Assembly: GCA_964474885.1 (NCBI GenBank)
Contig: CAYYWO010000010.1
Coordinates: 1-37,996 of the forward strand
DNA from: Candidatus Hadarchaeota archaeon
Lineage (GTDB): Archaea; Hadarchaeota; Hadarchaeia; Hadarchaeales; JAWBSP01
Direction of reading: 5' to 3'
DNA: 37,996 nt
The notes below the pieces were generated by a model that searched no databases, had not been told where the DNA came from, and was given only the letters and a program-made list of their open reading frames with translations. The translations under genes were made by a program, and so were the position numbers. Shown here piece by piece: positions 6,825-36,300 of this stretch; the stretch's first letter is position 1; each line of letters begins with the position of its first letter.

Positions 6825-6869
6825 TGAAAATTACTCCTGCGGGAATTACGCCCCTAATGCGAGGATAAG

Positions 6870-13109: not shown

Positions 13110-13859
13110 ATGAGAAGACCTGGCAGACGCGTGAGGATTCGGCCACGCAGGGCGAAGATCATAGGCTTCTTCTCCTGCAAGGGAGGGGTCGGTAAGACGA
13201 CCATGGTCTCTAACCTAGTCACCCTCCTGACGGACAGAGGAAAGAAGCTACTGGCCGTGGATGCGAATCTGGGTGCCCCGAATTTAGGCCTGCACTTCGG
13301 GGAGCTAACGCCCAAAATGACTATCCACGACGTGATCTCGGCTGAGCTCCCGATCCAGCGGGCCATCGTGGAGATTCAAGGGGTCAACCTCATCCTCGGG
13401 TCTATCGCCTTTGAGGAGGATATCAAACTCGTGGATTTGGGGGAGCTGCTTGAGCCGCTCCGGGCAAGCTACGATCTGATTTTCTTAGACACGGCACCGG
13501 GGGTTGGCAGCGAGGTAACCATGGCCCTGAAGGCATGTTCGGGCATGTTCATAGTGACAAACCCCTATGTCCCAACAATCGCCAGCACCCTCAAAACGTT
13601 CAGGGCAGCCGAAAAGTACAATGTCCCGATTCTGGGGGTGATCGTGAACAGGGTGGCAGGGGAACCCTACGAGCTCTCGTTAAAAGAAATCAGGAAGGCC
13701 ATGGGCTGGCCAGTGGTGGGGATCGTGCCTGAAGATAAGGCGGTCACCGAGTCAACTGCAGCGGGCATACCAGTAGTCAGGTACAGACCCACTTCTCCAG
13801 CAGCCAAGGAGATGAGAAAGATGGTGGGGAAGGTACTCGAGAGGATAAGGAGGATATGA
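13110..13859 (+). CDS. minD: MinD/ParA-family P-loop ATPase
   Basis: Deviant Walker A KGGVGKTT, VDANLGAPNL, LDTAPG, GVIVNRV, IVPED, GIPVV. Confidence 0.85.
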   Translation: MRRPGRRVRIRPRRAKIIGFFSCKGGVGKTTMVSNLVTLLTDRGKKLLAVDANLGAPNLGLHFGELTPKMTIHDVISAELPIQRAIVEIQGVNLILGSIAFEEDIKLVDLGELLEPLRASYDLIFLDTAPGVGSEVTMALKACSGMFIVTNPYVPTIASTLKTFRAAEKYNVPILGVIVNRVAGEPYELSLKEIRKAMGWPVVGIVPEDKAVTESTAAGIPVVRYRPTSPAAKEMRKMVGKVLERIRRI

Positions 13860-14470: not shown

Positions 14471-15328
14471 TCACTTGGAGGACAGAAGTATTTTCAGGAT
14501 TCGCGACACAGCTCTCTCTATGACATTCAACCTTTGTTGCAGCTTCTTGAGTTCGGTTGAGTTCTTCCTCTCTAAGTTTCCTAGAGTCCTCGAGAATTCC
14601 TCTCTCAGCCCATCGATTACGCTCTTCTCCGCCGACACTTCCCTATGATAGTTTTTGATGTCCTCTGCTAGGGCCCGGAAGTGCTGAATCTCTCCGACCA
14701 GCTTGTCGAAATCCGCCCGACTGACGAGTCCTTTCATGGATACCTCCAGCTCCCCCACGGCTTTCTGCAGGGGTTTTATGGTATCCTCCAGCCGGGATAG
14801 TCTGACTTCCAGATTTGTAACTTCCTTGAACCTACGCTGGAACTCCATGAAGGCTGTCATCACTTTGTCGGCAGCCACTTCCACCTGGTCTCTGATTTGC
14901 TGGATCCTTAGAATGTTGCTCCTCGCCTCATCGGACATCCCAATGACGGTCTCGAGCCCCTTGAACTTCGCCAAGGTTTCCCGGTACTCCTTCATCTCCT
15001 TGCGCAGGGAGTTCACCATGTCCTCAAAGGTCGAGAGCCTTGTCTTTATGCCCTCTATCTCGGCATCCCTCCGCATTAGGTAAGACTTGAACTCGTCCGG
15101 TTTGATGCCTTCTAAGGATGTCAGAGCCTTTTCTGCTTTCACTTTAGCGTCAGCACTCTCCTTTGCTTGGGCGATGATCATGGATCTCAGTTCACCAATC
15201 TTTTCCGTGATTAAAGTGAACCTGGCATCGTATGCTTCCCTTAATCCCGCTAAGGCCGTCACTCTAGCCTCCAACTCCCCAAGTCTCCTTTCTAACCCTC
15301 CTAGCTTTCCCTTTTCTTCTTTCGGCAC
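14471..15328 (-). CDS. Long coiled-coil protein (285 aa), function unknown
   Basis: Heptad-rich and charged throughout, no TM segment. GTG start 2 nt after the giant gene's stop. Confidence 0.85.
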   Translation of the reverse strand: MPKEEKGKLGGLERRLGELEARVTALAGLREAYDARFTLITEKIGELRSMIIAQAKESADAKVKAEKALTSLEGIKPDEFKSYLMRRDAEIEGIKTRLSTFEDMVNSLRKEMKEYRETLAKFKGLETVIGMSDEARSNILRIQQIRDQVEVAADKVMTAFMEFQRRFKEVTNLEVRLSRLEDTIKPLQKAVGELEVSMKGLVSRADFDKLVGEIQHFRALAEDIKNYHREVSAEKSVIDGLREEFSRTLGNLERKNSTELKKLQQRLNVIERAVSRILKILLSSK

Positions 15329-15330
15329 CT

Positions 15331-18300
15331 CTACTTACTCCTCCTGCCTCTTTTTTTCAGTCCCTTAGCAGTCTTGGTCTTCTCTTCCTCCTCCTTCATC
15401 TTGGCAAACTCCGGGTGTAGCTCTTCCTTCAGGGGCCTCTCTACTTCTCCTCCCACCTCTACTGGCACCCCCAGTATCTCCCTGTAGGCTTGGATGATCT
15501 CGGGCGGCCTCTCTATTCTTTCCCTTTCCCTGAGTGCCGCCATCTGCGCCCTCCTGATTTCCTCCTCGGGGACCAGTTCGATCACACGCTTTATGCCCTT
15601 CAGCCCATGCTTGGCGCAAAGCTCGTCCACTCTAGGTTCTAGTGAGTCCAAGTATGCATTGACTAGGTCGAAGGAGGCCTCCTCTAGCTTGCGCACGGCT
15701 AGGCCGAGTTCGATGCGCAGGTCGAAGACGTCCACTCCCTTCTCCTCCAGCTTCTTGAGCTTATACTTGATGTTCTCGATCCTGTCGTCAGCCTCGTAGT
15801 ATTTGTCGAGCTCCTCTGGTGAAAGTCTGAAGGTCGAGTGCAGAATAGGCCTGAAGTTGACGTAGTAGGGCCTACCCCTGTTGTAGTCTGGATTAACGAC
15901 CATGGCGTGCCCGATGGAGGCTCTGGAGACCGAACGCACGTGCTCTTCGCCGTACTTCATGGCTATCCTCTTCAGCTCGTTCTCCTCCCTTGTCCAAAAC
16001 TGGATCTGGGTTCTGCAGTTGCTCTGGATGGTCTCCGAGAAGTCGGCAATGGTCTGGGAGACGAGCATGACGCCGATGCCCCACTTTCTGAACTCCCTAA
16101 CAGCCCTTTCGAGCTGGACGACCCCCGCCCCAGTACCTCCGTACTTGGGCAGGAGCCTATGCACCTCGTCGAAGACTAGGAGCGTCTTCAGGTGCGGGTA
16201 CTCCCTGGGCTGAGAGGCGAAGATGGACTGAATGACATTGGTGACGAACACGTCCAAGTCTCCCGGCTTCAGGCGCTCGATCACGAAAATGGTTATCTTG
16301 CCCCTGGCCTCCTCCCCGATCAGCTCCTTCATATCCAGCTTCTGTCTCGGGTTGGTGATGAGTTTGACCACACCCGGGAAGCTCCTGGCATCACTAGGTT
16401 TCATGCCGAACTTGGAATAATGGGAGAGCATGCGCTTGTCCGTGCACTTGCGCAGGAAGCCCGTCCACTGGGCTGTTGGGTCGAAGACTATCGCATTGCA
16501 GCCCTTGAGGAGGGCTTCCTCGACTATAACCATGGAGGAGATGGTCTTGCCTCCCCCCGTGGCACCAGCCGTTATCACGTGCATCCTCAGGTCATCCAGG
16601 TTGAGGAACGCGGGCTCGCCCGTTTCGGCCAGCTTACCGATCTTGACGGAGTTTGGTCCAGGTTTCGGTAGCTCTTCTCTGAACAGCGTCCCGAGGAACC
16701 TCTTCCTCATCTCCAGCCGCTTCTTGTATAGCCTGTATCCATAAACTCCGGAAACTACGGACGCTATCGCGGCCACGATTAAAGCTCCGAACATCCATGG
16801 AGACAGCCCGAAGACTTTCAGCCTAGCAGTAGGCTCACCCACTTTAACGGGTGTTGAACCTCTCACCACAAGGGACTCACCGTTGATCGGGTACTCGGCT
16901 ACGGCGAGGAAGGTATACTCTCCTTCGAGCAGATCCTTCGGGAGCTGGCAGGTGAAGTCGAGGGTTCTTGCGTCACCGGCAGGCACTCTGATAGCCTTCT
17001 GACCGATGAACACGTTCTCCCCAGTCGGGTAAACCAACCACAGTCCTACCGTGACATCGGAGTCCATAGCTCCCTTGTTGGTCAGCTGGACTTGGACAGT
17101 GGTGGTGGCACCCGGTACGAGCTGATTCGGAGCTATAACCACCACATCGAACATACCCCTAGCCATGGGCAGGACGTAGATCGTAACTGGTACCGTCTTC
17201 ACGGTGGTCCCCCCGACGGTACTGAATCTTATTTCACCCGTGTGCACTCCCAGCCTCTCGTGGGACGGTATGGAGAACCTGAAGGTGAGCTTCCTGCTTT
17301 CCTTGGCTCCTAGCTCGAACTCGTAGCTGTAGGGAGCAGGCAGGAAGTCCTGGATTTTGCCCAAGATGTCCACTCTTACCCTGATGGGCTGAAACATCTG
17401 ACTGGTGACCTCCAATATCGCATCCGCCGACTTCTCCTGGTGGATCTGAAGCACAATTTGAATTGGTTTGATGACGAACGCCTCTTTCGGGGTTATGTTC
17501 TCCTGGATCATCTTATAGGCGGCTATGAGCTTTTCGTAAACAGTCTCTAAGTCCTCCTTCATGGATAGCTGGTAGTTCTCAAGCTTGGACACGCGCTCAC
17601 CAAGCCCGCTCACCTCTTGGGTTATCTGATCTAAAAGACCTGCAAAGTCCGACTGTGCAGTCTGGATCTGCTGAATGGCGTAAATGATGTCCCCGATCGT
17701 TTCTAGAATGTAGTCTACTTCGTCTTGGAGAAGCGCAATAGCTTCGGTTGTATTCTCTTGGAGTTCCGCAAGCTGCTTTTGAAGTTTCATGAAGTTCTCC
17801 TGCAGTTCCATCATCTGCTGCTGGAGTTCGATGAGCGTTCTGATGTTCTCTTGGGTCGCGAGACCGGACACTATGTTTTCCAAGGTGGAGGTTATCTCCT
17901 TCATGTTCTCGACAGCCGACGTGGCCTCCTCAGCGGCCTGCTGGAGGTCCCCCGCAGCCTCCTGCATGGTCTGGACAGCCTCCTGGAACTGGAGGATGGT
18001 GGAGGCGAGCGGATCGTACTCAGCCAGCACGTAAGCTACCTCGAAGTCGAACTCCTGGGTCCACGTGTTGTCCCAGGCCTGGATGGTGTAGTTGGCTATG
18101 TCAACCTTCCCTCCCAGGTCGATGAAGTCACCCTCCTTGCTCCTGTTGTCGTAGGAGTAATTGTCGGTCCTGTAGACCCTAAGCTGGGTCACGTCTTGGA
18201 TCCAGTACATCTGCAGGTAGGGGTATATGTCGAAGGTTGCACTGATGTTCTCGAAGTTCTCATAGAGGATCGGGTTGAGGCGCAGGGCAACGGTAGTTTC

Positions 18301-21300
18301 GGTCATTTTCGTCCCGGGGACGGCGAGGAAGGCGGAGGGCGGCAGATCCACCTGGACTAGGTTCTCGATGACTGAGTACGGTTCTAGCTTAGTTGTGTCG
18401 AAGTTAGTGAACTTGATCCAAACCCAGGCGTTCTCTCTGTTCCTGAATTGCAGAACTAGGTCAAACACTCCAGCGAAGACACTCTTTTCGTAGTAACCCT
18501 CCCCATCCGTAACGATCCGGAAGACCTCCTTTCCAGCTTCGTAGAAGATGAAAGAGGCATTTTCGATCGGATAACCGTCGACGGTGGCAAGCCTTCCTTT
18601 GATGGTTATGGGGGTACCCGCTATCATGGTCATCGAGTTCTCGCCCCTGATGCCCTCTGGGTTGACTATCCGAACCTCCACGTTGTACAGCCCGCGCTTC
18701 GGGAAAGTGTAGATTATCTGGTAATTGCCATCTAGCTGGGTCAGGTTTTCAGCTTTCTTCTCCCCCTCGACGAAGAACTCGACCTTCGTGCCAGATACAG
18801 GCATGTTGTCGGGTAGGAGGATGGCTTTACCCGAGAAGGTGAAGGGCTTGTTCTCAGGGGCGACATTCCCCTCCGGGATCAGGGAGATGTGGATGGTCTT
18901 CACGGAGAGCGAGGCGGAGTTCTCTTGGCAGAGGCCGTGGCTCTCGGTCATCTGCACTGTCACCACGTAGTCGCCGATCTCACTCGGGGCGGTCAGGGGC
19001 TTGGAGTAGAACCCGTTCTCGTCGGTCTGGATCACACACGACTCGTTCTCGAGTGTCAGCTGCACCTCCTCCCCACCCACGGGCTCTCTGTCGGGCAGGA
19101 GTTTGGCCCAGCCGTAGACAGTGAAGTTGTCTCCCGGGTTGACGATGTTGTCGTCCAGATATATGGAGAGCTCTACAGCCCTCACCTTGAGCGGCACGGA
19201 GCCGACGCCCGATCCGCTTATACCGTTGGCCGAGGTACCCATCACCTCCACCGGGTACGAGTAGTCTCCCAGCTCTAGGGGGGCCTGAGAAGCCGTCGGG
19301 TACCTCCACCAAGCATCCCTGACGTAGATTAACGGGTATGTGTCACCCTGGAAGGTCATGCGGAGCGGATCCTCGGTCACGGTCTTGGTCACCGGTATGA
19401 GCTCCTCCCCGTTATTCTCGAAGATCTGCACGCTTGGGTAGAAGTTCTCGCCTGGGTTGACGATCCCGTCGAACTGGTTGTGGAAGTCCAGCGGCATGAA
19501 CTGCAGGAGGACGAGCTCCCTCGCCTCGACGTATCCAACGTTCTCCCCTGTTATGCCTTCTGGATCCACCAAGCTCGCACTTATGCTGAACTTGCGCGGG
19601 GAGGTCGAGTCAAAGGTGTACAGGTACGAGTAACATCCGTTCTCGTCCGTTGTGACGGTCTCCAGCGGTGCGCCCTCCTCTTTCAGCTGGACCTCCTCGT
19701 TGGGCACGGGTACGTTGTCTGGCAGGAGGATCGCCCTGCCGTAGATCGTGAAGTCCTGGGTCAGCATGACGATGTTGTCGTCGAACAGCAGGGACAACCA
19801 CACGGTCTTGACGTAAAGGTCCACCTGGGTAGCCGCCGAGTAAATGCCCTTGTACTTGGAGATGCTGACCACCACTCTGTAGTCACCGATCTTGGAGGGA
19901 CTGGTGAAGGGTACCGAGTAGTAGCCGTCCTCATCCGTCCTGCCGCCGGCGACGGAGACCGTGTTCCCCTCGTTGTCCAGCACGAGCAGGCTGACGTCAA
20001 AGTTTTCCACAGGCTCCACATTCTCCGGGCTGCACAGGAGGATCCTCCCGTAAGCCCTATTGCGCTGGCCTGGGTTCACTATGTTGTCGTCCAGGTTCAC
20101 CTCCAAGTCCACGTACTTCACCGTCAGCTTTTGCTGGTTCTCGCCCTTTATGTATTCCTCAGGCTCCAGGATGGTGGCCCTGTAGGTGTAGGTGCCTGCG
20201 CTCGAGGGCGTGTAGAAGTAGATGCTGTAGCAGCCGTCCCAGTCGGTCTCCGCAACGCCCAGTAGGTTCTCCTCGCAGTACAGCTTGACGTTTTCCAGAG
20301 CCACCGGTTCGTTGTCCGGCACCAGCATGGCCTTCCCTGAGGCCATGAGCCTCTCCGACTTGTTGGCCTCGGTCCTCGGGTTCCCTGAGGGATCTGTTAT
20401 GTTGAGCGAGATCAGGATGGCCTTGATCATGAAATCTACGCTGTCGCTTCCTCTGATCCCATCTGCGTTCACGGCGGTTACTTGCAGGGTGTGGGAGCCC
20501 ACCTCGTCCAGGGTGTAGCTCAGGGTGTAGGACCAGGAGTACTGTCCATCGGTAGAGGAGGAGCTGCCCACGAGCTCCCCGTCTAGGTAGAAGTACAGGG
20601 TTGCGTTCTCAGGCACCCCCTCGGGCTGCAGAGTGACCCTGCCGCTCGCGGTTATCTTCTGGTCGATGTTCACTACCAAATCGTCTAGGCTAACCGTGAC
20701 ATCCAGCCTCCTTATGATAACGGTTGTGGAGTTCTCCTCCGTGACACCCTCCGGGTCCGTTACTTCCACCCTCACTACGTGCTCACCCAGGACAGAGGAA
20801 GCGTAGGTGGTCGAGTACCTCCCCTCACTGTCCGTGCTGGGGGTCCTCACGAGGCTCCCGTCGAAGTAAACCCTGACTTGGACACCCGAGATGCTGAGGT
20901 TGTCCGGCTGCCAGCTCACCCTGCCGTAAATGGTGAAGCTCTCCCTTGGGTTCACGATGTTGTCCGAGAGGGAGAGGGAGATGGTCAGATCCAGCACGCG
21001 GAACTTGAAGACGGGGCCCCAGTCTCCCGCATTTCCTGCCCGGTCCACCGCCCTCACCCTCCAGTAGTAGGTGCCGATGGGCAGGGAGTTCTCGGCGGGC
21101 AGGGTGAAGCTGTTCTCCCGCACGTTGTCGAAGGTGATGGGACCGGAGAAGTCAGGCGACTCGTCGATCTGGAGCACGTAGTGGTCCACCCCGCTCACCT
21201 CGGTTGTTGCGTCGGTGTTGTCCACCACGTTCTCCCACTCGAAGTACGGGGTGTTATCGGAGGTTATCTTCCCGTTCTCCGGCAGGTACAGGGAGGGGGT

Positions 21301-24300
21301 GAGCGGCTTGACCCTGTCAATCACGAGCTCGTAGACCTCCGACCACTCCCCGGGCTCGGTTGGCGCAGCTCTGTCGTAGGCCCTGACCCTCCAGTAGTAC
21401 CTCCCGTCCCATGGGTAGAACACGGTCACCTGGGCCTCCTTGAGGTTGTCGGGTGTGGAGGGGGAGAAGTACTCTGCCCCGAGCAGGGAGGTGAAGCCCG
21501 GATCGGTAGCTACCTGGATCTCGTAGTGGTCGATGCCGGATGCATCTTTGACGTTCTCCCATACGTGAGTGACGACCACGTAGTCTCCTTGCACGTTGTT
21601 CTCGGCCGCATCGTTTTCGGGCTGGTACAGCGCAGGGCCGTAGGGCCTCGTCAGGTCCACTACGAAGTTCCAGACGGTTGCCGACTCCCAGTCCACGGTG
21701 TTCCCAGCAACGTCCCAGGCCCTCACCCTGAAGTAGTAGTTGTCCTCCTCGAAACCGGCAGACGGGTAGCCTGAATCACCGAGCCCCCAGTAGTTGTCGG
21801 TGCTCGTGCCGCTGTAATCGATGGAGGAGAAGTCCGGGTCGTTGTCCACCTGGATCTCATAGTAGTCCACCCCCGATACCTCCCCCGTCGCCGAGCCCGA
21901 GCGGTCGGGCACGGAATTCCAGGACAGAGTGAGGGTGGCTGTCCCGTAAATGTGTCCGTGCTGCGGGGAGTTCTCGGGCACCTCCGGTGGCACGGTGTCG
22001 ATCAGTAGCGTCCAGACTTGGGAGAATGGACCGGCCTTCGGCGTCCCTCCTAGGACGCCGTCCCATGCCCTCACGCGCCAGTGGTAGTTCTCATCACCCA
22101 GCCCCATGAGCGGTACCCTGTAGTTCTCGCTGAGGTTCTCCAGAATCTCCGGGGAGCTGAAGTCCGCATCATTGTCCACCCATAGCTCGTACTTCACCCC
22201 CGTCACGTCATAAACGCTCGTCCACTCGAACCTGGGTGTGTTGTCGTTGGTTATGGTCTCATCGCTTGGGGAGACGAGCGAGGGTGCGGGTGGCGGATTG
22301 TTGTCCACGATGAAGCTCCAGACGTTCTCGAAGTCGCTCGCATTCCCTGCGACGTCCCAGGCCCTAACCTTCCAGTAGTACACGTTGTCCGGGAGAGTTG
22401 TCGTGTAGGAGGAAGTGGTGACGTCCACGTGGACGACTAGGTTGGTGAAACCCTCATCGGTGGAGACAAAGAGCTCGTAGTGGTCCAGGCCGGAGACGTC
22501 CCCGGAGGGAGACCTGGATCGGTCCACAACGTCTCCCCAAGCGAACGTGACCTCGGAGGAATTGAGCACGGATCCGTTCTCCGGCATGATCATGGGTGGG
22601 ACGTCCGGCGGGAGGGTGTCCAGGAGGACATTCCACACCTCGGACCAGTCGCTCCAGTTCCCTGCATTGTCTCTGACCTTGACATGCCAGTACCTGCACT
22701 CATCCTGCGGTTCGCCGTCTGCGTAGAAGAAGAACGTCCGCTCGGACACATCCACCGTAGCGGAGATGTGGTAGTCCGATGAGGGGTCAAAGGCGGGCGA
22801 GTTGTCTATCTCGATGATGTAGGCTCCGGAGCTCGGGATGCCCCACTCATCTGTTGCGTCGGCCCAGTCGAACCTGATCTTACCCGTCGAGTCATTTGTC
22901 ACGGCTTGGTTCTCGGGGGAGAGGAGAGCCGGTGGGTCAGGTGGCGTCAGGTCCACCACGACCGTCCAAGCATCCTCCACGTCGCTTGCATTGCCCGCCC
23001 AATCCCATGCCCTAACGGTCCACCTCCACTCTCCCTCCGGGACATCTGCATCGTAGGTAGTTCCGGCCACGTTGTCGGAGATGACATATCCGGTAGTTAC
23101 ATTCTCGATCCTTATCTCGTAGCACTTCACACCCGCGTTCTCACCTGTGGGCGAGTTGGAGGAGTCAGTGGAGGCGTTCCAGGAGAAGGTCAGGCTGGAG
23201 GAGTTCGTCACCACCCTGTTGTCGGGGTCATCCACCCCCGTGTCCGGTACCACGGTAGCCTTCAGCGGGACGGTTGGAGGAACGGTGTCGATGAGCACCG
23301 TGAAGACATCCGACCAGGCGCTCGCATTCCCTGCAACGTCCCAAGCCCTTACGCGCCAGTGGTAGTTCTCATCGGACAGTTCGACTACCCGGCTGGTTGA
23401 GTCCAAGTTCTCTTGGAGCACGGGGGAGCTGAAGTCAGCATCGTTGTCTACCCAGAGCTCGTAGCACTTGACGCCAGAGTTCTCCAGAGTGGGCGACCAA
23501 GACCTGTCCACGACCTCGGACCAGCTGAACTCAGGCGTGTTATCGTTCGTTTTCGTTCCATCGGCAGGCGACTTCAGGGTGGGGACATCCGGTGGTCTTG
23601 TATCGACCAGCAGGGTCCTCGTCTCGGAAGTGCTGTAGTTGCCCGCATTGTCCCAGACCCTAACCCTCCAGCTCCAGTTCTCATCGGGGAGTTCAACCGT
23701 TACTTGGTTGTCTGTGTAGTTCTCCAGCCAGAAGGGAGAGCTGAAATCGTTGTCATTGTCGATCCACAGCTCGTACGCCACCACCCCTGCCTTTTCGCCT
23801 GTGGGCGAGTTCGACAGGTCTTGCACGAAGCTCCAGCTGAAGGTCTGCAAGTTGTCGTTGGTTATGAGACCATCTTCGGGTGTTCCCAAGCTCGTCACTT
23901 CCGGAGCGACAGTATCCAGCAGGAAGTTGAAGGTGACGGAGTTTTCGCTAACGTTCCCGGCGGCATCCTTCGCCTTTACCCTCCAGTAGTACCTCTCATC
24001 GCTCAGCGTCACCACCTTGTAGTTGACGGTGGTCAGGTAGGAGGAGGCCGAGCTGAAGTCAGGGTCGTTGTCGATGTAGAGCGTGTATGAGTCGATGCCT
24101 GAGAGGTCCTCGGGCTCCGTCCAGCGGAAGGTAACCTCAGCCGTGTTGATCATGTCCGAGTTTTCGGGCAGGAGGGGTGTGGGCGGAGCCGGAGGCGTGG
24201 TGTCCACGATGAACCACCAGGTGCTGGACCAGGCCCCGGCGTTCCCTGCCCAGTCCCAGGCCCTGACCCTGTAGTACCATTTGGCATCCGGGAACCCTGT

Positions 24301-27300
24301 TTCGGGATAGTTCTCATCCACGCCGGACTCAAAGGCAGTATCCGGGCTGAACTGGATGACGAAGGGCGAGCTGAAGTCTGAGTCGTTGTCTATCCAGAGC
24401 TCGTATACCTTCACCCCGGAGGCCTCACCCGTGGGTGAGTAGGAGCTGTCGGTGGTCGAGTCCCAATTCAAGGTAGGATTGACTTGATTGGTGATCAGGC
24501 CATGGGTGGCGGAGCTGGCGGGTGTTCCAGGTGGCTTCGTGTCGATCATCAGCACGAAGAGCTCGGACCACTCGCCCCAGTGGCCCAGGACATCCCTCGC
24601 TCTGACCCTCCAGTAGTAGTTCTCATCGGAAAGCTGGGTACCCAGCTCGTGCACGTTCTCGGATGAGAAGTTCTCGTACTCGGGGGAGCTGAAGTCCGCA
24701 TCATTATCCACCCACACCTCATAGAGATCCACTCCGGCTAGGTCATAGGGCGTCTGCCACTTGAGCAAGGGTGTGTTGTCATTCGTGGAACTCAGGTTCT
24801 CCGGCTCCAGCAGGACCGGTGGTTCTGGCGGTGTGGTGTCCACGATGAACCACCAGGAGGCCTCAAAGTCCCCAGCGTTCCCTGCCCAGTCCCAGGCCCT
24901 GACCCTCCAGTAGTACTTCTCATCCGAGAAGATCGTGCTCCAGCTGTTGTCCGGGTGCGTTATGTTCTCTAGGTTCTCGGGGGAGCTGAAGTCGGGGTCG
25001 TTGTCTACCCAAATCTCGTAGCATTTTACTCCTGCAGCTTCTCCAGTGGGTGAGTCCGAAGTATCAGAGGCATGGTACCACTCAAATCTTATCTGTGTAT
25101 TGTCTGTCACGTGTTCATTGGGAGGAGCGTACTTGGAGGGTACTGAGGGTGCGACGGTGTCCCTCAGGAAGGAGAAGACACCTGACCAGTCGCTTTCGTT
25201 TCCTGCTTTGTCGATCGCTCTCACCCTCCAGAAGTAGTTCTCATCCGATCCTATCTTCAGCAGGATTTCCGAGGAGCTCGGGAACTCCTCTATCTCGGGC
25301 GTGCTGAAGTCTGGGTCGTTATCGACCTGGATGTGGTAGTGGTCGACACCCGAGTAATCGTCGGTGGAGTCCGTCCAGTCAAACTTGATGTACGTCAAAT
25401 TGGTCTTCGCTCCATTCTCCGGCGAAACTGGTTGTGGTGTAGAAGGACCTTCGATGTCGATGATGAAGGTCCAAGGCTCCTCGTTCTCGCTGACATTCCC
25501 TGCCTCATCCCAAGCCCTGACGATCCACTTGTAGATGCCGGGATCGAGTGTGATGGTCTTGATCGTGTCCGTGATGGTATTATCGTAGTGTGAGTAGGGT
25601 GGCACGAACCCGTCATTGTCGACTATGAGCTCATAATGTGCGACTCCGGCGTTTTCACCCGTCGGTGAGTATGAGTTGTCGTAAGAGGTTCCCCAGTCTA
25701 GTGTTACACTCAAGTTTGTTGTTATGTATCCATCGGACGGACCTACCTTTGGTGGTACGCTGGGCGACATGGTGTCCACCAGGAAGCTCCAGATCTGAGA
25801 CCAGTCGCTTACGTTCCCCGCATTGTCCCAGACCCTGACCTTGTAGGAGTAGTTTTCGTCCCCGAGCTCAAAGTCGAAAGTATAGGAATTCTCGGTGAAA
25901 TTCTCCTGAAGCACAGGTGAGCCGAAGTCGGGATCGTTATCCACCCAAAGCTCGTAGTACTTCACGCCGGAGGCCTCACCGGTTGGCGAGTTCGAGTAGT
26001 CCGGAACAGATGACCAGGTCAAGGTTGGTGTATTGTCGTTGGTCTTCATTCCATCCTGCGGGGAGCTGGGCGGGATGGCTGGTGGAACTGTATCGATCAG
26101 TAGCCTCCTGACCTCTGAGTCCGCCCAGTTATAAACCTCGTCCCAAGTTCTGACTTTCCAGTAGTAATATTCATCCGGTAGCTGCAGGGTCTTGGAGGTG
26201 GAGGTGAGGTTCTCCTGCCAGTAGGGTGAGCTGAAGTCAGCATCATTGTCAATCCAAAGTTCATAGCAGAGTAGTCCGGCATTCTCTCCAGTCAGCGATT
26301 CTGAGACGTCCTGGACCTCCTCCCAGCTGAAGGTAATGGTGTTCTCGCAGGTCTCCAGCTGGTCTGCGGGCGAGATCAGGGTAGTTGCGGGGACCGTGGT
26401 GTCAACCAGCAGGGTCCAGACCTCGGAGGATGCAGGGTGCCCGTAGACCCAGATCCTCACCTTCCAGTGCCAGTTCTCGTCGGGCAATTCGACAGTGGCT
26501 TGGTTTTCGGTGTAGTTCTCAAGCCAGTAGGGAGAGCTGAAGTCCGCGTCGTTGTCGATCCAGAGCTCATAGTTGTCGGTCAGTGGCCTGCTCGTCCACT
26601 CGAAGACCACAACATTGTCGTTCGTCCTCGTTCCATCTGCCGGTGAGATCAATTCGGGCGGAGCGGGTGTTTGGGCTCCGCATGTCCAAGCTTCAACCCG
26701 CATCCAAGCCACAGGTGTGTTAACAGATGCTGCCCACTCCTCGTTCTTCAGCCACTCAGCCACGGTAAGCACATGAGCTCCCCAACTTTCCAGCAAGAGC
26801 CATCTTGCTCCAAACACGAGGGTCCCGTCGAAAGTTTCAAGGGATCTCCATTGAGCTTTAGTTTCCACGGCCTCACTCCATGACTCGAGCTGCCTCCACT
26901 TCCCAATGATGTACAGCCGGGCAACCGACCATTCCCCGATGTTCCCTGCCGTATCCCTCGCCCTGACCCTCCAGTAGTAGTGGTCGGCTTTGGGCAGGGT
27001 TACCGTGTGGTAGTTCTCCAGGATGTTGTCGTTATCGTACTCCGGGGAGCTGAAGTCCTCATCGTTGTCTATCTGGAGCTGGTAGATGACCCCAGAGTTG
27101 TCGACAACCGAGCACCAGCGGAAAGTAACGGTCAGGTTGTCCGAGCATGAGGCATTTTCGGGCGACAGGAGCTGGACCTGTGCTGGAGGCACGGTGTCCA
27201 CCCTGAACCAGAAGGTTTCAGAATTGTCCCCTATGTTACCGGCGTTGTCCTTGGCGCAGACCCTCCAGTAGTACACGTTGTCGGGCAGGGCTGGTGTCAC

Positions 27301-30300
27301 CTCCCACCAGTTCTCAGCCCTCCAGCCGTTCTCCCTCACCACATTGGTGAAGTCGGGATCTGTTGCTACCCAGACGTAGAACAGGACTGGCTGGGACACA
27401 TCCCAGACGTTCTCCCAGCTCAGGAGTGGCGTCGTATCGTTCGTGTTCTCTCTATTCTCGGGCTGGTAGAGCTGGGGCGGGGCTGGCGGCTGAGTCTCCA
27501 CCCTGAACCACCAGGTGGCAGTCTCGAACACGTTCCCAGCGTTGTCTTTAGCGAGGACCCTCCACTCGTAGTCGTTGTCGGGTAGGGATGGTGTTACGAC
27601 CCAGTTGTCGTCCGTTATCCATCCCGAGTCCCTGTAGTTCTCCGTCACGCCCTTCCTGTTTATCAACACCCGGTAGAGGACGGGCAAGCTGTTGTCGACC
27701 GCTGGGTTCCAGTCCAGATTCGGCTGAGCTCCAACTCCAGCAATCCTCCCGTTTTCCGGCCAGATCAGGAAGACATTTTCGGGTGGTAGAGTGTCCACCC
27801 TGAATTTCCTCACCTCCGAGTTCTCCCCTATGTTACCGGCGTTGTCCTTGGCGCAGACCCTCCAGTAGTACACGTTGTCGGGCAGGGCTGGTGTCACCTC
27901 CCAAGCATTCTCGGAGATCCAGCCGGAGTCCCTCACTATGTTCTCAAACAGGTTGTCAGTCGCCACCCACACCCTGTAAACCACGGGTGGTGATACCTCA
28001 GGGGTCCCCCCTACCTGCGTGCTCACCTCCTCCCAGCGCAGGAGGGTGGTGTTGTCGTTCACGTTCTCCCCATCGATGGGTGAGATTAGCACGGGTGGGA
28101 GCGGGGGCTTGGTGTCCACCCTGAACCAGATGTACCCCGTGTTCTCCCCGACATTTCCGGCATCGTCGCGCGGCACGACCAGCCAGTAGTACTCACCATC
28201 GCTGAGCTCGATCGGGCACTGCCAGTTTTCAGATTCAATCCAGTCAGTGGTTTGTGTCAGCAGGGTGTAGTCCTCGTCGTACACGTACACCTTATAGGTA
28301 AGCGGGAGGGAGTTCTCAGGCGGGGCCTCCCACTGGAACAGGGGCGTATTGTCGTTTATCTTAGCCGTAGGCCAGATGGGGGTGGGTGCACTGGGAGGCA
28401 CCGTGTCCACCCTGAACCTCCAAACCTCTGAATTCTCACCAATGTGCCCCAGCTCGTCCTTCCCGCACACCTTCCAGTAGTACAGGTTGTCCGGCAGGGC
28501 GGGAGTGGCCTCCCACGAGGTTGAGGACAGCCAGTCGGACTCCCTCACGACGTTCTCGAAGAGGTTGTCCGTTGAGATGAAGACCTTGTAAACGACATCC
28601 GTCAGGTCCTCGGACGGGTTCCAGGATAGGACTGGCGTGTTGTCGTTCAGGTTGTCCATATCCGGTGGGGAGGAGAGTGTTGGTGGGGTCGGCGGCGTGG
28701 TATCCACGATGAAGTACCTGACCTCGGACCACGGACCTACGTTCCCCGCATTGTCCTTCGCCCTGACCCTCCAGTACCAGACCCCATCTGCCAGGGCGGG
28801 GGTTACCTCCCACTGGTTGTCTAGGATCCACCCGGAATTCTCGTTCTCGTAGGGGAAGTTCTCGTTGTCGCTTATGGCGACATAATAGGCTACGGGCAGC
28901 GCCTCCTCTGGGTAACCATCAGTTTGGGTGGTCACATTCTCCCACTGCAAGAGCGGCGTGTTGTCTGCCGTCTTCAGCCCGTTCTCGGTGAGCAGGACAG
29001 GGGCGGCTGGGGGTGTTACGTCTATTCTGAACCATCGGATCTCAGACCACGGACCTACGTTCCCGGCGTTGTCCTTTGCCCTTACCCTCCAGTACAACAC
29101 TCTGCCTCTGGTGAAGGTTATGCTCACCCCGGTGTTGTCGATCCAGCCTGAGGAGTAGTTCTCGTACGGGAACTCTTTATTGTCGCTTATCGAGAGGTAG
29201 TAAAGGACCGGCAGGGAGTTCTCGGTCACGGAGCTCCACTCGAAGTGCACAGTGTTCTCGTAGGTTGCCCAGCCGTTCTCGGGGGAAACTAGGGATGGGG
29301 CCGCAGGCGGAAGGGTGTCGACCCTGAACTTCCAGAGGTCACTGTAGACACTCGCGTTACCCGCATTGTCTAGGGCCTTGATCTTCCAGTAGTAAATTCC
29401 GTCCGCCAGCTCCACGGTGCACTCCCACCAGTTCTCCCCCACGACGATGGTATCCGCCACCAGGTTTAGGTCCTTGTCGTAGACCTTCACGTAGTAGCTC
29501 ACGGGTATAGAGTTCTCCGGTACGTTCTCCCAAGTGAACAGGGGCGTGTTGTCCCTGACGTTCTCCCCGTTGTACGGGTGATATCTGTCGGGCACTTTGG
29601 GCGGGGTGTTGTCGTACGCGAAGTACCTGTTCTCAGACCATGCCCCCCAGATGCCCTCCACGTAGGCTCTGACCCTCCACCAGTACTTGGAGTCGATAGC
29701 GGGCGGCTCGAAAACGTACTGGTTCTCCAGCACCCCCGAGTTGTCCACGATGGGGGAGCTGAAGTCGTTGTCGTTGTCGATTTGCACCCAGTAGTTCTCG
29801 GCAAGCCTGACGGACTCCCAGGTCAGGGTGATCGGTGGAGTATTGAAGCCTTCTCCATTCTTTGGTGAGATGAGCAGGGGCGGCGGCACGGGGGCGCTCA
29901 CGTTGTCCGTCCACCCCTCTACTAGCCTCCACGCCACGAAGGCCTTACCTCCGCAGCTCCACGTTTCTACCCGTAGCCATCCGCTCAGGGGGCCTTTCAG
30001 GCCGGCGCCCCAGCTCTCGACCGCCACCCACCTGCCTATGTAGAACTTCCAGTTCTCCGACCAGTCCCCGGCATGCCCCACCGCATCCACGGCCCTCACC
30101 CTCCAGAAGAAGAGCCCGTAGCCCGTAGCCTGCCAGTGGTAGACGTTTTCGGCAGTGGTGTCCTCGTGCAGAATTTCGGTGAAGTCTTGGTTCGCCGAGA
30201 TCTGTATCACGTAGTGGTCCACACCCGAGCTCCAGAGATCGTTCGGGTTGTCGTAGTCATCGTAGGCCCTCACCCACTCGAACCTGACGCTCAGGTTGTC

Positions 30301-33300
30301 CCTCACATGGTTGTCGGGTGGGGAGTAGAGGCCCGGAGTGGAGGGAGGTTTGACGTCCAGCCTGAAGCTCCAGACCTCCGACCAGTCACCCACGTTCCCT
30401 GCATTGTCCCTCGTCCTGACCCTCCAGTAGTACCTGTCCTCGGTGGTGAGCGGCGGGCTGATGCTCCACTTGTCCTCATGGATCCAGCCTGAGTCCCTCA
30501 GGATGGCAGAGAAGTCTGAGTAGGCGGAGACCTGCACCTGGTACATGACGGGCAGAGAGTTCTCCTCCACGGGCTCCCAGTCCAGGGAGGCGTTTTCGTT
30601 CACCCAGCTGTCATCCGCGGGGGAGGTGAGGGCGGGCGCGGCAGGCGGCAGCGTGTCGATGCGGAAGCTCAATTCGGCATTTTCCCCGATGTTCCCAGCA
30701 TTGTCCACGGCCCTCACCCTCAGGTAGTAGACACCGTCCGGCAGTTCCACCGGAACCGTGTAGGTGTTCTCCGTCAGCCCGCTCACGCTCACCTCCGGGG
30801 AGGAGAAGTCCGGGTCGTTGTCTATCCAGAGGTCGTAGGTCAGCGGGAATGAGTTCTCCTCAGGCGGGATCCACTCAATGGTGGGGGTATTGTCATTCGT
30901 GTTCTCCCCGGCTACAGGTTTCGTGATGGTGGGTGGGGAGGGTGCGAGGGTGTCTATCCTGACGGTCCAGACCTCGGACCAGGGGGAGTAGGCGTTCGTC
31001 CTCGCCTGTCTCACTCTCCAGTAGTAAAGCCCGTCGGTCAGCCCTGCAACGTACGTGTACTCGCTACCGATGAGGTCCGGCCTGTCTATTACGAGATCCG
31101 TGAACTGGTTGTCCGTGGCCACTTGCAGGTGGAAGTTATCGGCTGGTAGCAGGTTTTCCCAGTCGAAGGTCGGGGTCGGATTGTTGATGTTCTCCCCGTT
31201 TCTGGGGCTGATCAGCACGGGTGCGGGCACGGGCGCGGAAACGTTCTCGTTGGCCCACACCTCGATTGACCACCAGCTGGCCAGGGTCCGGACAGCACAG
31301 CTCCAGCCCTCCACCTGCCTCCATTCCGAGTAACCAACCGAGCCCGCCGCCCAAACCTCTACCTGCCTCCACCTGGCAAGTGCGGTGGTGCCCGACGCCC
31401 ATTTCTCGACCTGCATCCATCCAAGCACCAGGGTCCGGACGGTGCATCCCCAGCCCTCCACATGCCTCCACCCAGCCAGTGCAGTCGTGCCTGACGTCCA
31501 TCCCTCGACCTGCATCCATCCAAGCACTAGAGTCTGGACGGCACAGCTCCAGCCCTCCACGTATCTCCACTCAGAGTAACCAACCGAGGTAACCGTCCAG
31601 CCCTCTACCTGCGTCCACCTGGCTAGTGCGGTGATGCTTGACGTCCATTCCTCGACCAGTAGCCATCCTGCCGAGGTTCGGACCAGGCCTTTTAAGTTCT
31701 CCACTAGGAACCAGCCACCAACAGGGCCGTTGATCCCAGCAGTCCAGCCCTCGAGCAGGATCCAGTGCCCGACGTACAGTGCGAAGTTATCCGACCAGTC
31801 CCCAGCCCATCCCACGGCGTCTATCGCCCTCACCCTCCAGTAGTAAAGGCCGAACTCCGAGAAGGTGTAGGTGTGGTAGTTCTCGCTTGCCGGGATGTTG
31901 TCGTTCTCGTATACTATGTTAGAGAAGCCCGGATCGGTGGAGACCTGCAGGTGGTACCTGTCCACCCCTGAGAGCTCATCGCTCGCATCGTACCACCTGA
32001 AGGTAACGGTCAGGTTGTCCAGCGTGACGTTGTTTTCTGGCTTGTAAAGCGTCACCTTGCTGGGCGGGGTCCGGTCCACCTTGAACTGGTACCCCGTATC
32101 CCCGCCCGCCCACGGGCCTACGTTTCCGGCGTTGTCCACCGCGCAAACCCTCCAGTAGTACACGTCCTCCGTGGTTAGCGAGATTTGGAGGTTATCATCG
32201 TAGGTCCATTCGTCGATCGTGGGGCTCCCGAAGGAGGCTGCCTGGTTCCTGACCTGCACGTGGTACCTGACGGGCAGGGAGTTCTCCTGCACCGGCTCCC
32301 AGTCCAGGTTCACCTCCCCGTTGGTCCAAACCCCGCCCGTCGGGTAGACGACGCTGGGGGCTGCGGGAGGCAGGGTGTCCACCCTGAAGCTCCCCGCCGA
32401 CCAGCTCCCCGCATTCCCAGCATTGTCCCACCCCCTCACCCTCCAGTAATAAACGTTATCAGGTAACTCGACCGTCACCTGGCAGTTGTCGTTCTCCAGC
32501 CTGTTCTCGTGGAAGATTATGTTGGAGAAATCCGAGAGGTTCGAGACCTCCACCTCGTAGAGGACGGGCAGGGAGTTCTCTGGGCTCCCATCCTTCTCCT
32601 GGGTTACAGGCTCCCAGTCCAGGAAGGGGGTGTTGTCGTTCAGATTCTCCCCCTCGGCCGGGGAGACGAGCGTGGGCGCAGCTGGCCCTGTCGTGTCCAC
32701 CCTCACCCTCCAGACCTCCGACCAGGGTCCCTCAGCATCCCCCCGCTTCATCTTCACCCTCCAGTAGTACAGGGCATCTGCCAGGCTCCCTAGAGGTGTG
32801 TAGGACTTGGCCTCGATCCAGCCTGGCTCTATCTCCGGGGAGCTGAAGTCGGGGTCGTTGTCTACCTGCAACCAGTAGGCATCCGCCGGGAGGAGGTTCT
32901 CCCACTCGAAGGTCGGGCGGTTGTTGTTCGTGTTCAGGTTATCGGGTGGGGAGACGAGCACGGGTGCGGGCACGGGCGCGGAAATGTTCTCGTTGGCCCA
33001 CACCTCGATTGACCACCAGCCAGCGGTGGTCCTGACTCTACCGGGGCACTGTTCGATGGACCTCCAGCTCGCGAAAGCGGCAACGATTCCGGACCAAAGC
33101 TGAAGGAGGAGCCAAGCGGCAGCCGAGGAGGTGGAGCCCGACCAGTCTTCAAGCAGAAGCCAAGCGGCAGGGGCACTCACACCCCCGGATAGGCCCTCTA
33201 CACCCTCCCACCTAGCTGGAGCGAAGACGGATGCGGTTGTGCTCTCGACGGGTACCCATCCCGAGATGATCGTTCCAACCGATCCCGTCCAGGCTTGGAG

Positions 33301-36300
33301 TAGTAGCCAGCCCATCAGGATGGTCCCACTCCTGCAGTCCCAGCCTTCGACCCGCAGCCATCCGGTGATGATGGTGCCCAGGCCCCCGCTCCACGTGCTG
33401 AGACCGAGCCATCCGAGCAAGACCGTCCCGACTATGGCATCCCACCCATCTATTAGCTGCCAGGAGGCAATGGTGTTAAGACTAGCCAGCCACTGCTCCA
33501 GGAAGATCCAGTGTCCAACATATAACACAAAGTTATCCGACCAGTCCCCAGCCCATCCCACGGCGTCTATCGCCCTCACCCTCCAGTAGTAAAGGCCGAA
33601 CTCCGAGAAGGTGTAGGTGTGGTAGTTCTCGCTTGCCGGGATGTTGTCGTTCTCGTATACTATGTTAGAGAAGCCCGGATCGGTGGAGACCTGCAGGTGG
33701 TACCTGTCCACCCCTGAGAGCTCATCGCTCGCATCGTACCACCTGAAGGTAACGGTCAGGTTGTCCAGCGTGACGTTGTTTTCTGGCTTGTAAAGCGTCA
33801 CCTTGCTGGGCGGGGTCCGGTCCACCTTGAACTGGTACCCCGTATCCCCGCCCGCCCACGGGCCTACGTTTCCGGCGTTGTCCACCGCGCAAACCCTCCA
33901 GTAGTACACGTCCTCCGTGGTTAGCGAGATTTGGAGGTTATCATCGTAGGTCCATTCGTCGATCGTGGGGCTCCCGAAGGAGGCTGCCTGGTTCCTGACC
34001 TGCACGTGGTACCTGACGGGCAGGGAGTTCTCCTGCACCGGCTCCCAGTCCAGGTTCACCTCCCCGTTGGTCCAAACCCCGCCCGTCGGGTAGACGACGC
34101 TGGGGGCTGCGGGAGGCAGGGTGTCCACCCTGAAGCTCCCCGCCGACCAGCTCCCCGCATTCCCAGCATTGTCCCACCCCCTCACCCTCCAGTAATAAAC
34201 GTTATCAGGTAACTCGACCGTCACCTGGCAGTTGTCGTTCTCCAGCCTGTTCTCGTGGAAGATTATGTTGGAGAAATCCGAGAGGTTCGAGACCTCCACC
34301 TCGTAGAGGACGGGCAGGGAGTTCTCTGGGCTCCCATCCTTCTCCTGGGTTACAGGCTCCCAGTCCAGGAAGGGGGTGTTGTCGTTCAGATTCTCCCCCT
34401 CGGCCGGGGAGACGAGCGTGGGCGCCGCCGGCGGGGTCACGTCAATTCTGAACTGCCTAACTTCGGACCAAGCGGATTCTGCTTCCGTCCTTTTCATCTT
34501 AACCCTCCAGTAGTAAACCCCCTCATCCAAGGAGCCCAAGGGTGTGTAGCTCTTTGAGGTTATCCAGCCCGTGTCTATCACGAGTGAATTGAAATCCGGA
34601 CTCTCGTTGTCCACCTGTAAGTAGTAGTAGTCCGCCGGCTGGAGGTTGTCCCAGCTGAAGGTCGGCGTCTGGTCGTTCGTGTTCTCGTGATTCAAGGGCG
34701 TGAGCAAAATGGGGGCGGGGACGGGTGCCGAGACATTTTCATTCTCGAAGTTGTCGAGCAGGAGCCAGCTGGCAGAGGTTTGGCAGGAGCATGACCATGT
34801 CTCCAGGAGCCCCCAGCCCAGGACCGAAAAGCTCCCGCAGCTCCAAGACTCTAGCTGGAACCAGAGCCTGAGGTAGAAGCAGCGGTTCTCCGACCAGCTC
34901 TGGTTTCCGACCGCATCGATGGCCAGCACCCTCCAATAGTACAGCCCGATTTCCGAGGCGCTGAAGTCGTAGCTTTCTTGGGTCGGGGGTAGGAGCTCGT
35001 CCACCAGCGTCCCGTTGAGGAAGTTATCATCATTGTCGATCTGCAGCCGGTAGTTTTCAAGCCCCGATCCGCCGTCGTAGTCATGCCATTGCAGGGTAAC
35101 GCTCAGGCCCGTTATCTCCGCCTGGTTGTCCGGGCTCAGCAGGGTTGGCGCGGGGACCTCGTTATCCACCACGAAGGACTCCCTGACGCTGAACTCAGAC
35201 TCGTTCGGTGCAGGGTTGTTCACGTTATCCCTGGCCTTGACCCTCCAGTAGTAGGTCCTGCCGTTCTCGAAGGCCTGGTCGGCGACGAAGTAGTTCTCGG
35301 TTATCCATCCCGAGCTGTAGACATTGGTCAGGAAGTCCGGATCGGTCGAGTACTCCACGTAGTAGTAAACCGGGGTGGAGAGCTCTTCATCGCCATCGTT
35401 CTCCAGAGTGACCGAGGACCAGCGGAGGGTTGGGGTGGCCTGGGTGAACTGCCCGCCTGTGGGCGAGACAGGCTCCGGGATCTGGGGTGGTGTCGTGTCT
35501 ATCCTGAATGATCTGTATGCGGAGTAGTCCCCGACGTTCCCGGCATTGTCCTGGGCCCTCACCTTCCAGTAGTAAGTGTTGTCGGGCAGCTCCGGAGTTG
35601 TTACGTTGTCGTTCTCTATCCACCCGGAATCGAAGACGACATTTGTGAATCCGGAGTCCGTGGCCACCAGGACCTTGTAGAGGAGGGGCAAGGAGTTCTC
35701 GGGGGTGCCGTCGGTCTCCGTGGTTGGAGGATCCCAGTCGAGCAGGGGCGTGTTGTCGCTGAGCACCTCCCCGTCCTCGGGAGAGACGAGGGTCGGGACG
35801 GAGGGGGGCGTTAGGTCCACGTGGAAGACCCAGGGCTCCGTCCAGGCCCCCGGTGTGCCGGCGTACCACCTCCTGACTCTCCAGTAGTAGAAGCCCTCGG
35901 GCAGGGAGTTTTCTGGGGGAATCGTTATGGTGTTTTCAGTAGTGTTGTTCTCGTACTCGGGGGAGCTGAAGTCGGCATCGTTGTCCACCTGTATGTCGTA
36001 GTTGTCTGCCGGGATGCTCGTCCACCTGAAAGTTGGCGTATTGTCCTGCGTATTTGCACCGTTCTCTGGCTCAAGTAGGGTCGGTCCGGGTGGGCACCAG
36101 GTTATCTTCACCCAGTCCACGAGCGGTCCGTCTGCTCCCGAGAGCAGCTCGTTGTCCTCGGTTGCGAACTTGATCCTGTACTGGAAGTACCTGTTCTCGT
36201 TCCCCAGGGGTATGCGGGAGTTGTTTTCTATCCAAGTGTTTGTCGCCGAGTTGTCGTCGAACCACGTGTTGGACGTGTTGTCCGGTCCCTTCCAGGGGGA

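Follow-up and report, generated by a model that had tools for sequence, protein, structure and literature searches.

What structure do blocks of tandem tryptophan-rich repeats form in a giant archaeal surface protein, and what might they do there? The question is raised by a contig of 37,996 nucleotides, the whole of which was analysed (the window), and which comes from an uncultured member of the Hadarchaeota and encodes a giant protein of its cell surface. The repeat is a real, undescribed 16-residue Trp repeat common to many Hadarchaeota surface proteins, and the blocks are proposed to form stiff β-strand segments clamping several protein chains together. The relevant features, in window coordinates, are as follows.

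13110..13859, (+) strand: MinD-like ATPase gene (TIGR01969, 169 bits, below the cut-off of 202)
14471..15328, (-) strand: gene for a coiled-coil protein, immediately 3' of the giant gene and kept downstream of its orthologues (L014, L020, L027)
15331..37995, (-) strand: giant surface protein, 7,554 aa; single open frame, 5' end open at the contig end
15850..16647, (-) strand: cytoplasmic HerA/FtsK-superfamily ATPase domain, Walker A and B intact (Pfam DUF87, HerA_C)
16735..16797, (-) strand: one membrane helix, aa about 7067-7087, then basic residues (sequence reading)
17491..18018, (-) strand: extracellular heptad-repeat (coiled-coil) segment, aa about 6660-6835 (sequence reading; approximate boundaries)
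18436..20985, (-) strand: more Ig-like domains, Big_1 and CarboxypepD_reg type (Pfam; approximate boundaries)
20986..36090, (-) strand: array of 44 FN3/Ig-like domains, aa 636-5670 (own-profile hmmsearch; Pfam Ig_Rha78A_N and Big_13)
26659..26898, (-) strand: block 5, 5 units, aa 3700-3779, after FN3 26
29884..30030, (-) strand: block 4, 3 units, aa 2656-2704, after FN3 16
31228..31764, (-) strand: block 3, 11 units, aa 2078-2256, after FN3 12
32971..33510, (-) strand: block 2, 11 units, aa 1496-1675, after FN3 8
34720..34863, (-) strand: block 1, 3 units, aa 1045-1092, after FN3 4
31750-32935 and 33496-34684, (-) strand: two internally duplicated copies of the FN3 stretch in the super-repeat of four FN3 domains plus block (92% identity, 1,195 bp)

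Comparison with a 7,944-residue orthologue in genome G003 suggests that about 900 residues are missing from the N-terminal part of the host protein. The internal duplication is recent. Orthologues carry segments similar to the coiled coil of the host protein; a trimer motif seen in the window protein is absent from them, and was discarded as not conserved. The ATPase tail matches DUF87 at 31.9 bits (cut-off 23.2) and HerA_C at 27.6 bits (cut-off 22), and the domain is present in 12 of 66 Hadarchaeota genomes (E<=1e-40). It is no named HerA or CedD orthologue, and its NCBIfam matches are far below their cut-offs.

An earlier note on this DNA had counted 33 units, grouped into five blocks (3, 11, 11, 3 and 5), and all were confirmed in one open frame; the positions it gave among the FN3 domains were matched exactly by a profile made from the host protein's own FN3 domains, on which the count of 44 rests. 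The strict motif W-x-x-[VLI]-E-x-W occurs in 22 of the 33 units and nowhere else in the host protein (1,000 shuffles: mean 0.2, maximum 2). The blocks occupy inter-domain linkers, outside the membrane anchor, and each follows immediately on the final strand of an FN3 domain, without an intervening linker. The proposed entry sequence, [YI][VI]G[HRK]W, holds for blocks 2-5, four of the five, and the proposed exit, N[VI]SAPVP, for blocks 1-4, although the latter belongs to the last unit, as its positions 10-16, and is no separate linker. Relative to the whole FN3 region, blocks included, the blocks are low in Pro (2.7% vs 7.4%) and Asp (1.3% vs 8.1%) and rich in Trp (11.7% vs 5.6%), with Glu equally common (7.6% vs 7.0%). 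The scarcity of Pro and Asp that had been noted is thus true of the window protein, but Pro is not scarce in the family, where it stands at position 14 in 34% of 1,381 units. Contigs from public runs, one of them possibly the source sample, span all five blocks with zero differing letters in the pieces listed.

The family consensus is W-x-x-[VLI]-E-[STG]-W-[TS]-G-T-[VI]-x-[AT]-P-A-x, with a period of 16 in 1,916 of 2,426 spacings. The repeat was found in 34 of 66 Hadarchaeota genomes, five further genes of the same genome carry it (six in total), and a sister repeat of Thermoplasmata type exists. Copy number is free: blocks contain 2-55 units, most commonly two or three, and one G003 protein has at least 120. 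Regular spacing along an FN3 fibre, as the earlier note supposed, describes the host protein and an orthologue (blocks after FN3 4, 8 and 12) but not the family, since 46 of 117 carriers are without FN3 domains of the host-protein type. Some carriers have subtilase, papain or sulfatase domains, and two paralogues in this genome combine the repeat with a PGF-pre-PGF domain (TIGR04213) above cut-off. A minimal architecture is that of a protein of 152 residues comprising a signal, six units, an anchor and nothing else. Among the carriers examined, the repeat was never found behind the membrane anchor.

The impression that the family was unrecognised is borne out by the blocks searched, for which Pfam, NCBIfam, PHROGs, PDB sequences and the ESM Atlas gave no match. 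All five window blocks returned no Pfam family at E<=1, and no family matched more than 4 of 98 aligned members; five archaeal repeat queries gave no PHROGs match, the best PDB sequence (E 0.02) was not credible and the best Atlas scores were 0.81 and 0.82. Pattern scans of genome contigs with a window block and of viral contigs with a regular repeat were likewise negative, and no RNA dataset with the repeat was among the matches listed. No description of the repeat was found in a search of mainly freely accessible literature; the main texts of two Hadarchaeota culture papers and of an archaeal domain survey held no matching passage, and nothing on Hadarchaeota surface proteins was found in print. 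Enrichment cultures of the phylum are themselves recent.

Could the blocks simply be unstructured monomeric linkers? Low AlphaFold2 confidence would be in keeping with this. However, in the 1,381 units Trp occupies position 1 in 99% and an acid position 5 in 98%, the spacing between W1 and W7 is fixed, positions 4, 7 and 11 are hydrophobic, and there are compensating changes; an unstructured linker is therefore very unlikely. Positions 1, 4, 7 and 11 are hydrophobic and position 9 is Gly, and where W7 is lost Leu replaces Val or Ile at position 4 (90 of 154 units, vs 274 of 1,227; volume z -5.1). Opposite charges at positions 3 and 6 within a unit are in excess (24 vs 5.7 +/- 2.3 expected), and side chains are coupled at i,i+3 within positions 1-7. 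N-glycosylation sequons occur at positions 6, 8, 10, 12 and 13 but are enriched over background only at 13 (49/89 vs 102/991), so that the others do not prove exposure. We infer that positions 1, 4, 7, 9 and 11 point inward, as position 15 probably does; the first five look buried. The inward side chains total about 520-600 cubic angstrom per unit.

Buried tryptophans also bear on the suggestion of the earlier note that the blocks are membrane- or surface-binding patches, for which no positive support was obtained. Exposed Trp patches binding membranes, oil, other hydrophobic surfaces or glycans would agree with the high Trp content and the extracellular position, and some Hadarchaeota grow on long-chain alkanes, according to PMC10811742 and PMC11297162. 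However, the in/out pattern and the size compensation at positions 4-7 point to buried Trp, and blocks lie up to 6,000 residues away from the anchor. Moreover, the alpha subunit of MCR/ACR occurs in 5 of 66 genomes, as against 34 of 66 for the repeat; one of those five is without a repeat match, and no MCR/ACR alpha match was found in genome G000. A link to alkane metabolism was rejected on this distribution, and surface-binding patches are regarded as improbable.

If the core is buried, it may be completed within one chain or between chains. A self-sufficient β-solenoid with a Trp core, in which each unit would be one coil and add about 0.5 nm to a rigid monomeric spacer, is a possibility to be taken seriously, if a doubtful one. 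In its geometry G9 would face W1, and W7 would lie beside L4. The period is strictly one unit, with an identity of 0.45 at lags 1-5 and no odd/even alternation, which also led to rejection of an antiparallel meander; a surplus of odd block sizes (133 vs 80) was not trusted because relatives are not independent. Constant-period tandem repetition with alternating inward residues, Leu compensation for W7 and the core volume all fit a solenoid, and coils of 16 residues are known in ice nucleation proteins (PMC10727499). Against it, AlphaFold2 monomer runs on window block 3 (98-row alignment) and on a regular 8-unit homologue (125 rows) gave pLDDT values of 36.5 and 33.9, too low to be usable, although with alignments so small the failure may be technical. 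In the second model, unreliable as it is, the units are stacked in parallel and contribute one strand each, as expected of a solenoid; it had no Foldseek match at E<=0.001, and the best VIA fold match, at Z 4.1, was not significant. The region IV fold of MpIBP (3p4g) was absent from the fold matches listed, which counts neither way.

Stacked coils would also place the almost invariant acid on itself; no charge coupling was detected at i,i+16, and same-position charges in neighbouring units are uncoupled (like pairs at position 2: 142 vs 145 expected). Mean-field DCA on 1,712 three-unit rows reflected shared ancestry only (lag 16 equal to lag 32). Within 110-114 blocks of at least six units, near-duplicate and very uniform blocks having been dropped, only local pairs stood out; large z values at positions 7 and 11 were sparse-count artefacts at rarely charged positions. 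A further difficulty for the solenoid is its ends. In 141 blocks, first, middle and last units conform to one profile (W1 99/99/97%, E5 86/81/86%, W7 92/90/88%), with no capped or altered terminal units, and isolated blocks include 26 of two units and 27 of three, some being remnants of longer degenerate blocks.

The absence of caps, the blocks of two or three units and the failed monomer predictions are the reasons, all of them indirect, for favouring a β structure completed between chains, which is preferred to the single-chain solenoid and held tentatively, at a little short of even confidence. Two or three uncapped units presumably cannot alone bury two Trp each, hence the proposal that chains share or stack their blocks. 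Coiled coils and HerA-like ATPases are normally oligomeric, and monomer prediction usually fails for obligate intertwined fibres. By comparison, PMC10192328 gives a ColabFold pLDDT of 83 +/- 9 for true single-chain curlin solenoids, and reports that uncapped solenoids polymerise.

In the preferred inter-chain structure the blocks would fold as β strands with a tryptophan core completed between several chains. Within a unit, positions 7-12 would be a regular strand, 13-14 a loop accepting insertions, Pro or an N-glycan, and 15-2 a second short strand, with arcs or bulges at 2-3 and 5-6. Equivalent blocks of at least two chains could be intertwined, in the manner of a triple β-helix, or stack coil on coil. 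In the outer part of surface proteins they would then act as stalks and clamps, stiff and adjustable in length. In the host protein, chains would be tied at intervals of four FN3 domains close to the distal end, while the coiled coil and ATPase tail would keep the same chains together at the base. Several observations count against completion between chains: the second model resembles a single-chain solenoid, the core volume fits one single-chain coil as well as a multi-chain share, most carriers are without any other oligomer signal, and the trimer motif in the window protein's coiled coil is lost in the orthologues. No result here shows an oligomer, and neither units nor chains proved to be coupled to one another, in a test that may be too weak.

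The independence of the units is also what would be expected of an array of docking strands, unfolded alone and completing a partner by strand addition (tandem β-zipper or donor strand). Within the FN3 profile the unit best matches the last strand plus linker (7.6 bits, vs 5.5 for the next segment), but 8 of 200 column shuffles reach 7.6. Its i,i+3 spacing is reminiscent of thrombospondin repeats, in which a rippled WxxWxxW strand needs another strand beside it (PMC2173040). However, hhalign gave unit against FN3 a probability of 0.09, no candidate partner gene was identified, and in the ten frames of genome G000 that match the FN3 profile no FN3 domain lacks its last strand, one cut by a contig end excepted. 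Such docking arrays are accordingly thought a poor prospect.

A wider role was also considered. For 19 of the 33 repeat-bearing frames with room to check, a MinD-like homologue is encoded no more than 2.5 kb downstream. It is conceivable, if rather unlikely, that the repeat is a shared assembly code of the Hadarchaeal surface by which blocks of different proteins co-assemble into a mixed Trp-cored β scaffold, placed on the cell by the neighbouring MinD-like ATPases. If so, its partners would include enzymes, lectins, giant ATPase-tailed fibres and the 152-residue protein, and the scaffold would have a fold not yet in the PDB. In any case, the repeat is among the commonest unannotated surface modules of Hadarchaeota and, having no Pfam or PDB match and no confident AlphaFold2 model, a compact target for a possibly new β-fibre fold. 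Protein design, too, would gain from a Trp-cored rod or clamp of programmable length taken from hydrothermal archaea.

How, then, does the repeat compare with known systems? The choline/cell-wall-binding Trp repeat is a hairpin of about 20 residues with the pattern W-x5-G-x-W-Y-Y; it was rejected, as the Hadarchaeal period is 16, with no WYY motif and no Pfam match. The triple β-helices of phage T4 gp5 and VgrG, with sides of 8 residues, and the adenovirus triple β-spiral are obligate multi-chain β fibres whose monomers do not fold alone. One 16-residue unit could equal two 8-residue sides; however, there is no sequence or structure match and no VxG octapeptide, and the core is Trp-rich.

In the accessible parts of PMC10192328 and PMC10727499, curlin CsgA and the ice nucleation protein coils appear, like the present repeat, as free-copy tandem β repeats with alternating inward residues. 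The ice nucleation coil (PMC10727499) has the same period of 16, curlin (PMC10192328) is likewise without caps, and the T-x-T-like motif at positions 8-10 is shared with both, as far as those texts are available. There is no sequence match, however: the Hadarchaeal unit has two Trp and an acid instead of small residues and Asn/Gln ladders, and its blocks, for which no confident prediction exists, are set between folded domains of membrane-anchored proteins. Strand A of the thrombospondin type 1 repeat and the WSXWS motif (PMC2173040) resemble the unit in their hydrophobic residues at i, i+3 and i+6 followed by Ser/Thr or an acid, and in tolerating Pro two residues after the first Trp. The Hadarchaeal repeat differs in having no Arg layers or conserved Cys, an aliphatic middle residue, and no counterpart of the other two strands; identity with the thrombospondin repeat was rejected, as only W-x-x-[VLI]-x-x-W is held in common, Cys pairing is not above chance and there is no Pfam match.

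At the level of whole proteins, archaeal surface glycoproteins with PGF-pre-PGF (TIGR04213) have a single C-terminal anchor, as do the repeat-bearing paralogues, whereas in the window protein the C-terminal part consists of a coiled coil, then a membrane helix and finally a HerA-like ATPase. The giant Omnitrophota proteins, which have membrane segments and a SecA-like ATPase (bioRxiv 10.1101/2023.11.21.568195, the main text of which mentions neither Hadarchaeota nor HerA), differ in ATPase family and in repeats, but they too combine a giant surface protein with an internal ATPase and unannotated β regions.

The window comprises contig C10 of genome G000 in full, and the 16-residue Trp repeat lies in the following frame of it:

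15331-37995 (-): giant surface protein, a single frame of 7,554 aa with an open 5' end

The earlier note had claimed 33 Trp units in five blocks, placed after FN3 domains 4, 8, 12, 16 and 26, and this count proved exact in an array of 44 FN3 domains in total. The strict motif W-x-x-[VLI]-E-x-W is present in 22 of the 33 units, versus 0.2 in shuffles. In contigs from public hydrothermal-vent runs, one of which may be the source, every block is covered and the listed pieces do not differ from it; because each block is covered in this way the blocks are not an assembly artefact.

The blocks sit within FN3-FN3 linkers, starting directly after the last strand of the preceding domain, and a block's last unit leads into the Pro-rich beginning of the domain that follows. 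The unit also resembles the last FN3 strand plus linker, a weak hint given that 8 of 200 shuffles were equally good, and might accordingly belong to an array of docking strands. This reading is improbable, as an hhalign comparison of the unit with FN3 was not significant and no partner was found.

C-terminal to the FN3 array follow more Ig-like domains and a heptad segment; a single membrane helix and a HerA/FtsK-like ATPase with intact Walker motifs form the protein end (window:15850-16797). Close homologues of this ATPase tail occur in 12 of 66 Hadarchaeota genomes, carried by open frames 329-7,944 aa long. The longest, the orthologue in the related genome G003, has 40 FN3 domains, of which numbers 4, 8 and 12 are followed by blocks of 3, 9 and 7 units; thus block position is kept between the two proteins and unit copy number is not. 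In G003, a stretch of less than 60 kb (L013-L016; G003:C1:78227-137002) contains three giant repeat-bearing genes, of 3,170, 7,944 and 5,638 aa. N-terminal to the FN3 array of the giant are ~630 beta-rich residues (window:36100-37995), which gave no NCBIfam match and no best stretch in Pfam, and which are possibly carbohydrate-binding domains. Beside the giant (window:13110-15328) lie a MinD-like gene, a small gene with a helix-turn-helix look by eye and no NCBIfam match, and a coiled-coil gene. MinD homologues are found downstream of 19 of 33 repeat-bearing frames.

Five further surface-protein frames of the same genome (G000) carry the repeat:

C1:3-5786: surface-protein frame
C4:27859-36384: surface-protein frame
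C22:1934-5590: surface-protein frame
C25:2-5488: surface-protein frame, with a run of ~50 Trp units
C31:964-4410: surface-protein frame

Contigs C13, C16, C17 and many short ones of this bin have a GC content of 0.33-0.44, versus 0.52-0.59 in the main contigs, and are possibly foreign DNA.

The repeat was found in 25 of 41 relatives with a window block as query, and in 34 of 66 phylum genomes, many of them incomplete, with a regular homologue. A profile built from 98 blocks matched only 328 proteins (E<=0.001) among 1.84 billion representatives; those named are Hadesarchaea or Hadarchaeales, plus one Zixiibacteriota label. Among the 150 matches listed, many of them fragments, 117 contain blocks by our own scoring. 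Blocks of the family hold 2 to 55 units. No FN3 of the giant's type is present in 46 of these 117 carriers; a membrane helix follows the last block in 68, and no block lies beyond the last membrane helix in any. Other domains on carriers include subtilase, papain, sulfatase, LamG and beta-helix, and P0147 consists of a signal, six Trp units and an anchor, with nothing else.

The family had been called unrecognised, and indeed Pfam, NCBIfam, PHROGs, PDB sequences and the ESM Atlas all lack a match. No description was found in a literature search covering main texts, nor any mention in the main text of the Hadarchaeota culture papers (PMC10811742, PMC11297162), an archaeal domain survey and a giant-gene preprint (bioRxiv 10.1101/2023.11.21.568195). 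The Trp repeat is therefore a real, undescribed, lineage-restricted family of unsolved fold.

The remaining profile matches include a sister repeat, linked by name to Thermoplasmata, and a phage-type 16-mer. In the former, W-N-x-V-x-D-W-N-G-S-L-Y, positions 8 and 13 are Asn; it is present in P0040, in P0099 and in about nine proteins like them. P0040 itself is labelled Actinobacteria, two of its cluster members are named Thermoplasmata, and P0099 has matches in 30 of 65 Hadarchaeal genomes. The latter (W-A-E-L-E-V-P-x-A-P-R-x-A-Q-V-S; L078:596-1462, P0081, P0092, P0095, P0096, P0103) is C-terminal in proteins without anchors, and on a viral contig one such gene adjoins genes that by eye look terminase-like and portal-like. 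The 16-mer has A-x-V-S-W-x-x-L-E in common with the archaeal unit, a score equalled by 45 of 1,000 shuffles, so that kinship appears doubtful.

Unit statistics were taken from 1,381 units of 114 de-duplicated blocks, numbered from the first Trp. Position 1 is aromatic in 99% and position 5 acidic in 98%; positions 4, 7 and 11 are hydrophobic in 87%, 97% and 79%; Gly occupies position 9 in 60% and Pro position 14 in 34%. Such conservation is at odds with a disordered linker, which is very improbable. Of 2,426 unit spacings, 1,916 measure 16 residues and 372 measure 17, the length varying around positions 14-16. Ser/Thr follows Asn13 far above chance (49/89 versus 102/991), so that glycosylation and exposure of the position-13 loop are likely; positions 6, 8, 10 and 12 gave a negative result in this test. 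The couplings found are all local, namely opposite charges between positions 3 and 6 (24 versus 5.7), Leu4 in 58% where Trp7 is lost versus 22%, and position 16 with position 2 of the next unit (52 versus 38). Adjacent units resemble each other no more than distant pairs do, and no same-position charge coupling was seen between neighbours. This pattern suggests one strand at 7-12 and, after a loop, a second, short one at 15-2, with positions 2-3 and 5-6 forming arcs or bulges.

Two geometries, a single-chain coil or a share of a multi-chain core, are compatible with the in/out pattern and with the 520-600 cubic angstrom of core that each unit would fill. With small alignments, AlphaFold2 gave pLDDT 36.5 and pTM 0.15 for window block 3 (11 units), and pLDDT 33.9 and pTM 0.22 for a very regular 8-unit homologue. 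The low-confidence model of the latter is a parallel stack with a single strand per unit (positions 5-12), and structure searches with it returned no significant match. Curlin solenoids score 83 +/- 9 with ColabFold (PMC10192328), and the 16-residue coils of ice nucleation proteins are solenoids by prediction too (PMC10727499); a plain single-chain solenoid, one coil per unit, would therefore be expected to score better, although the alignments used here were small, and is a possible but somewhat less likely reading. First and last units match middle units in profile. These uncapped ends, the many 2-3-unit blocks, the low confidence of both monomer models and the presumably oligomeric base of the giant lead us to favour, tentatively, a core built by several chains. 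Binding of the blocks to surfaces is unlikely and finds no support: MCR/ACR has no match in G000, and 5 of 66 genomes have one.

With a multi-chain core, the blocks would tie parallel chains together at every fourth FN3 across the giant's distal half; on other carriers they may serve as stalks beneath different heads. Less probably, the repeat could be a module of new fold through which different surface proteins co-assemble. The unit pattern is like the i,i+3 rippled strand described for thrombospondin repeats (PMC2173040), and the Trp repeat would count as a further type of beta-repeat stalk, a class already known on surface proteins.
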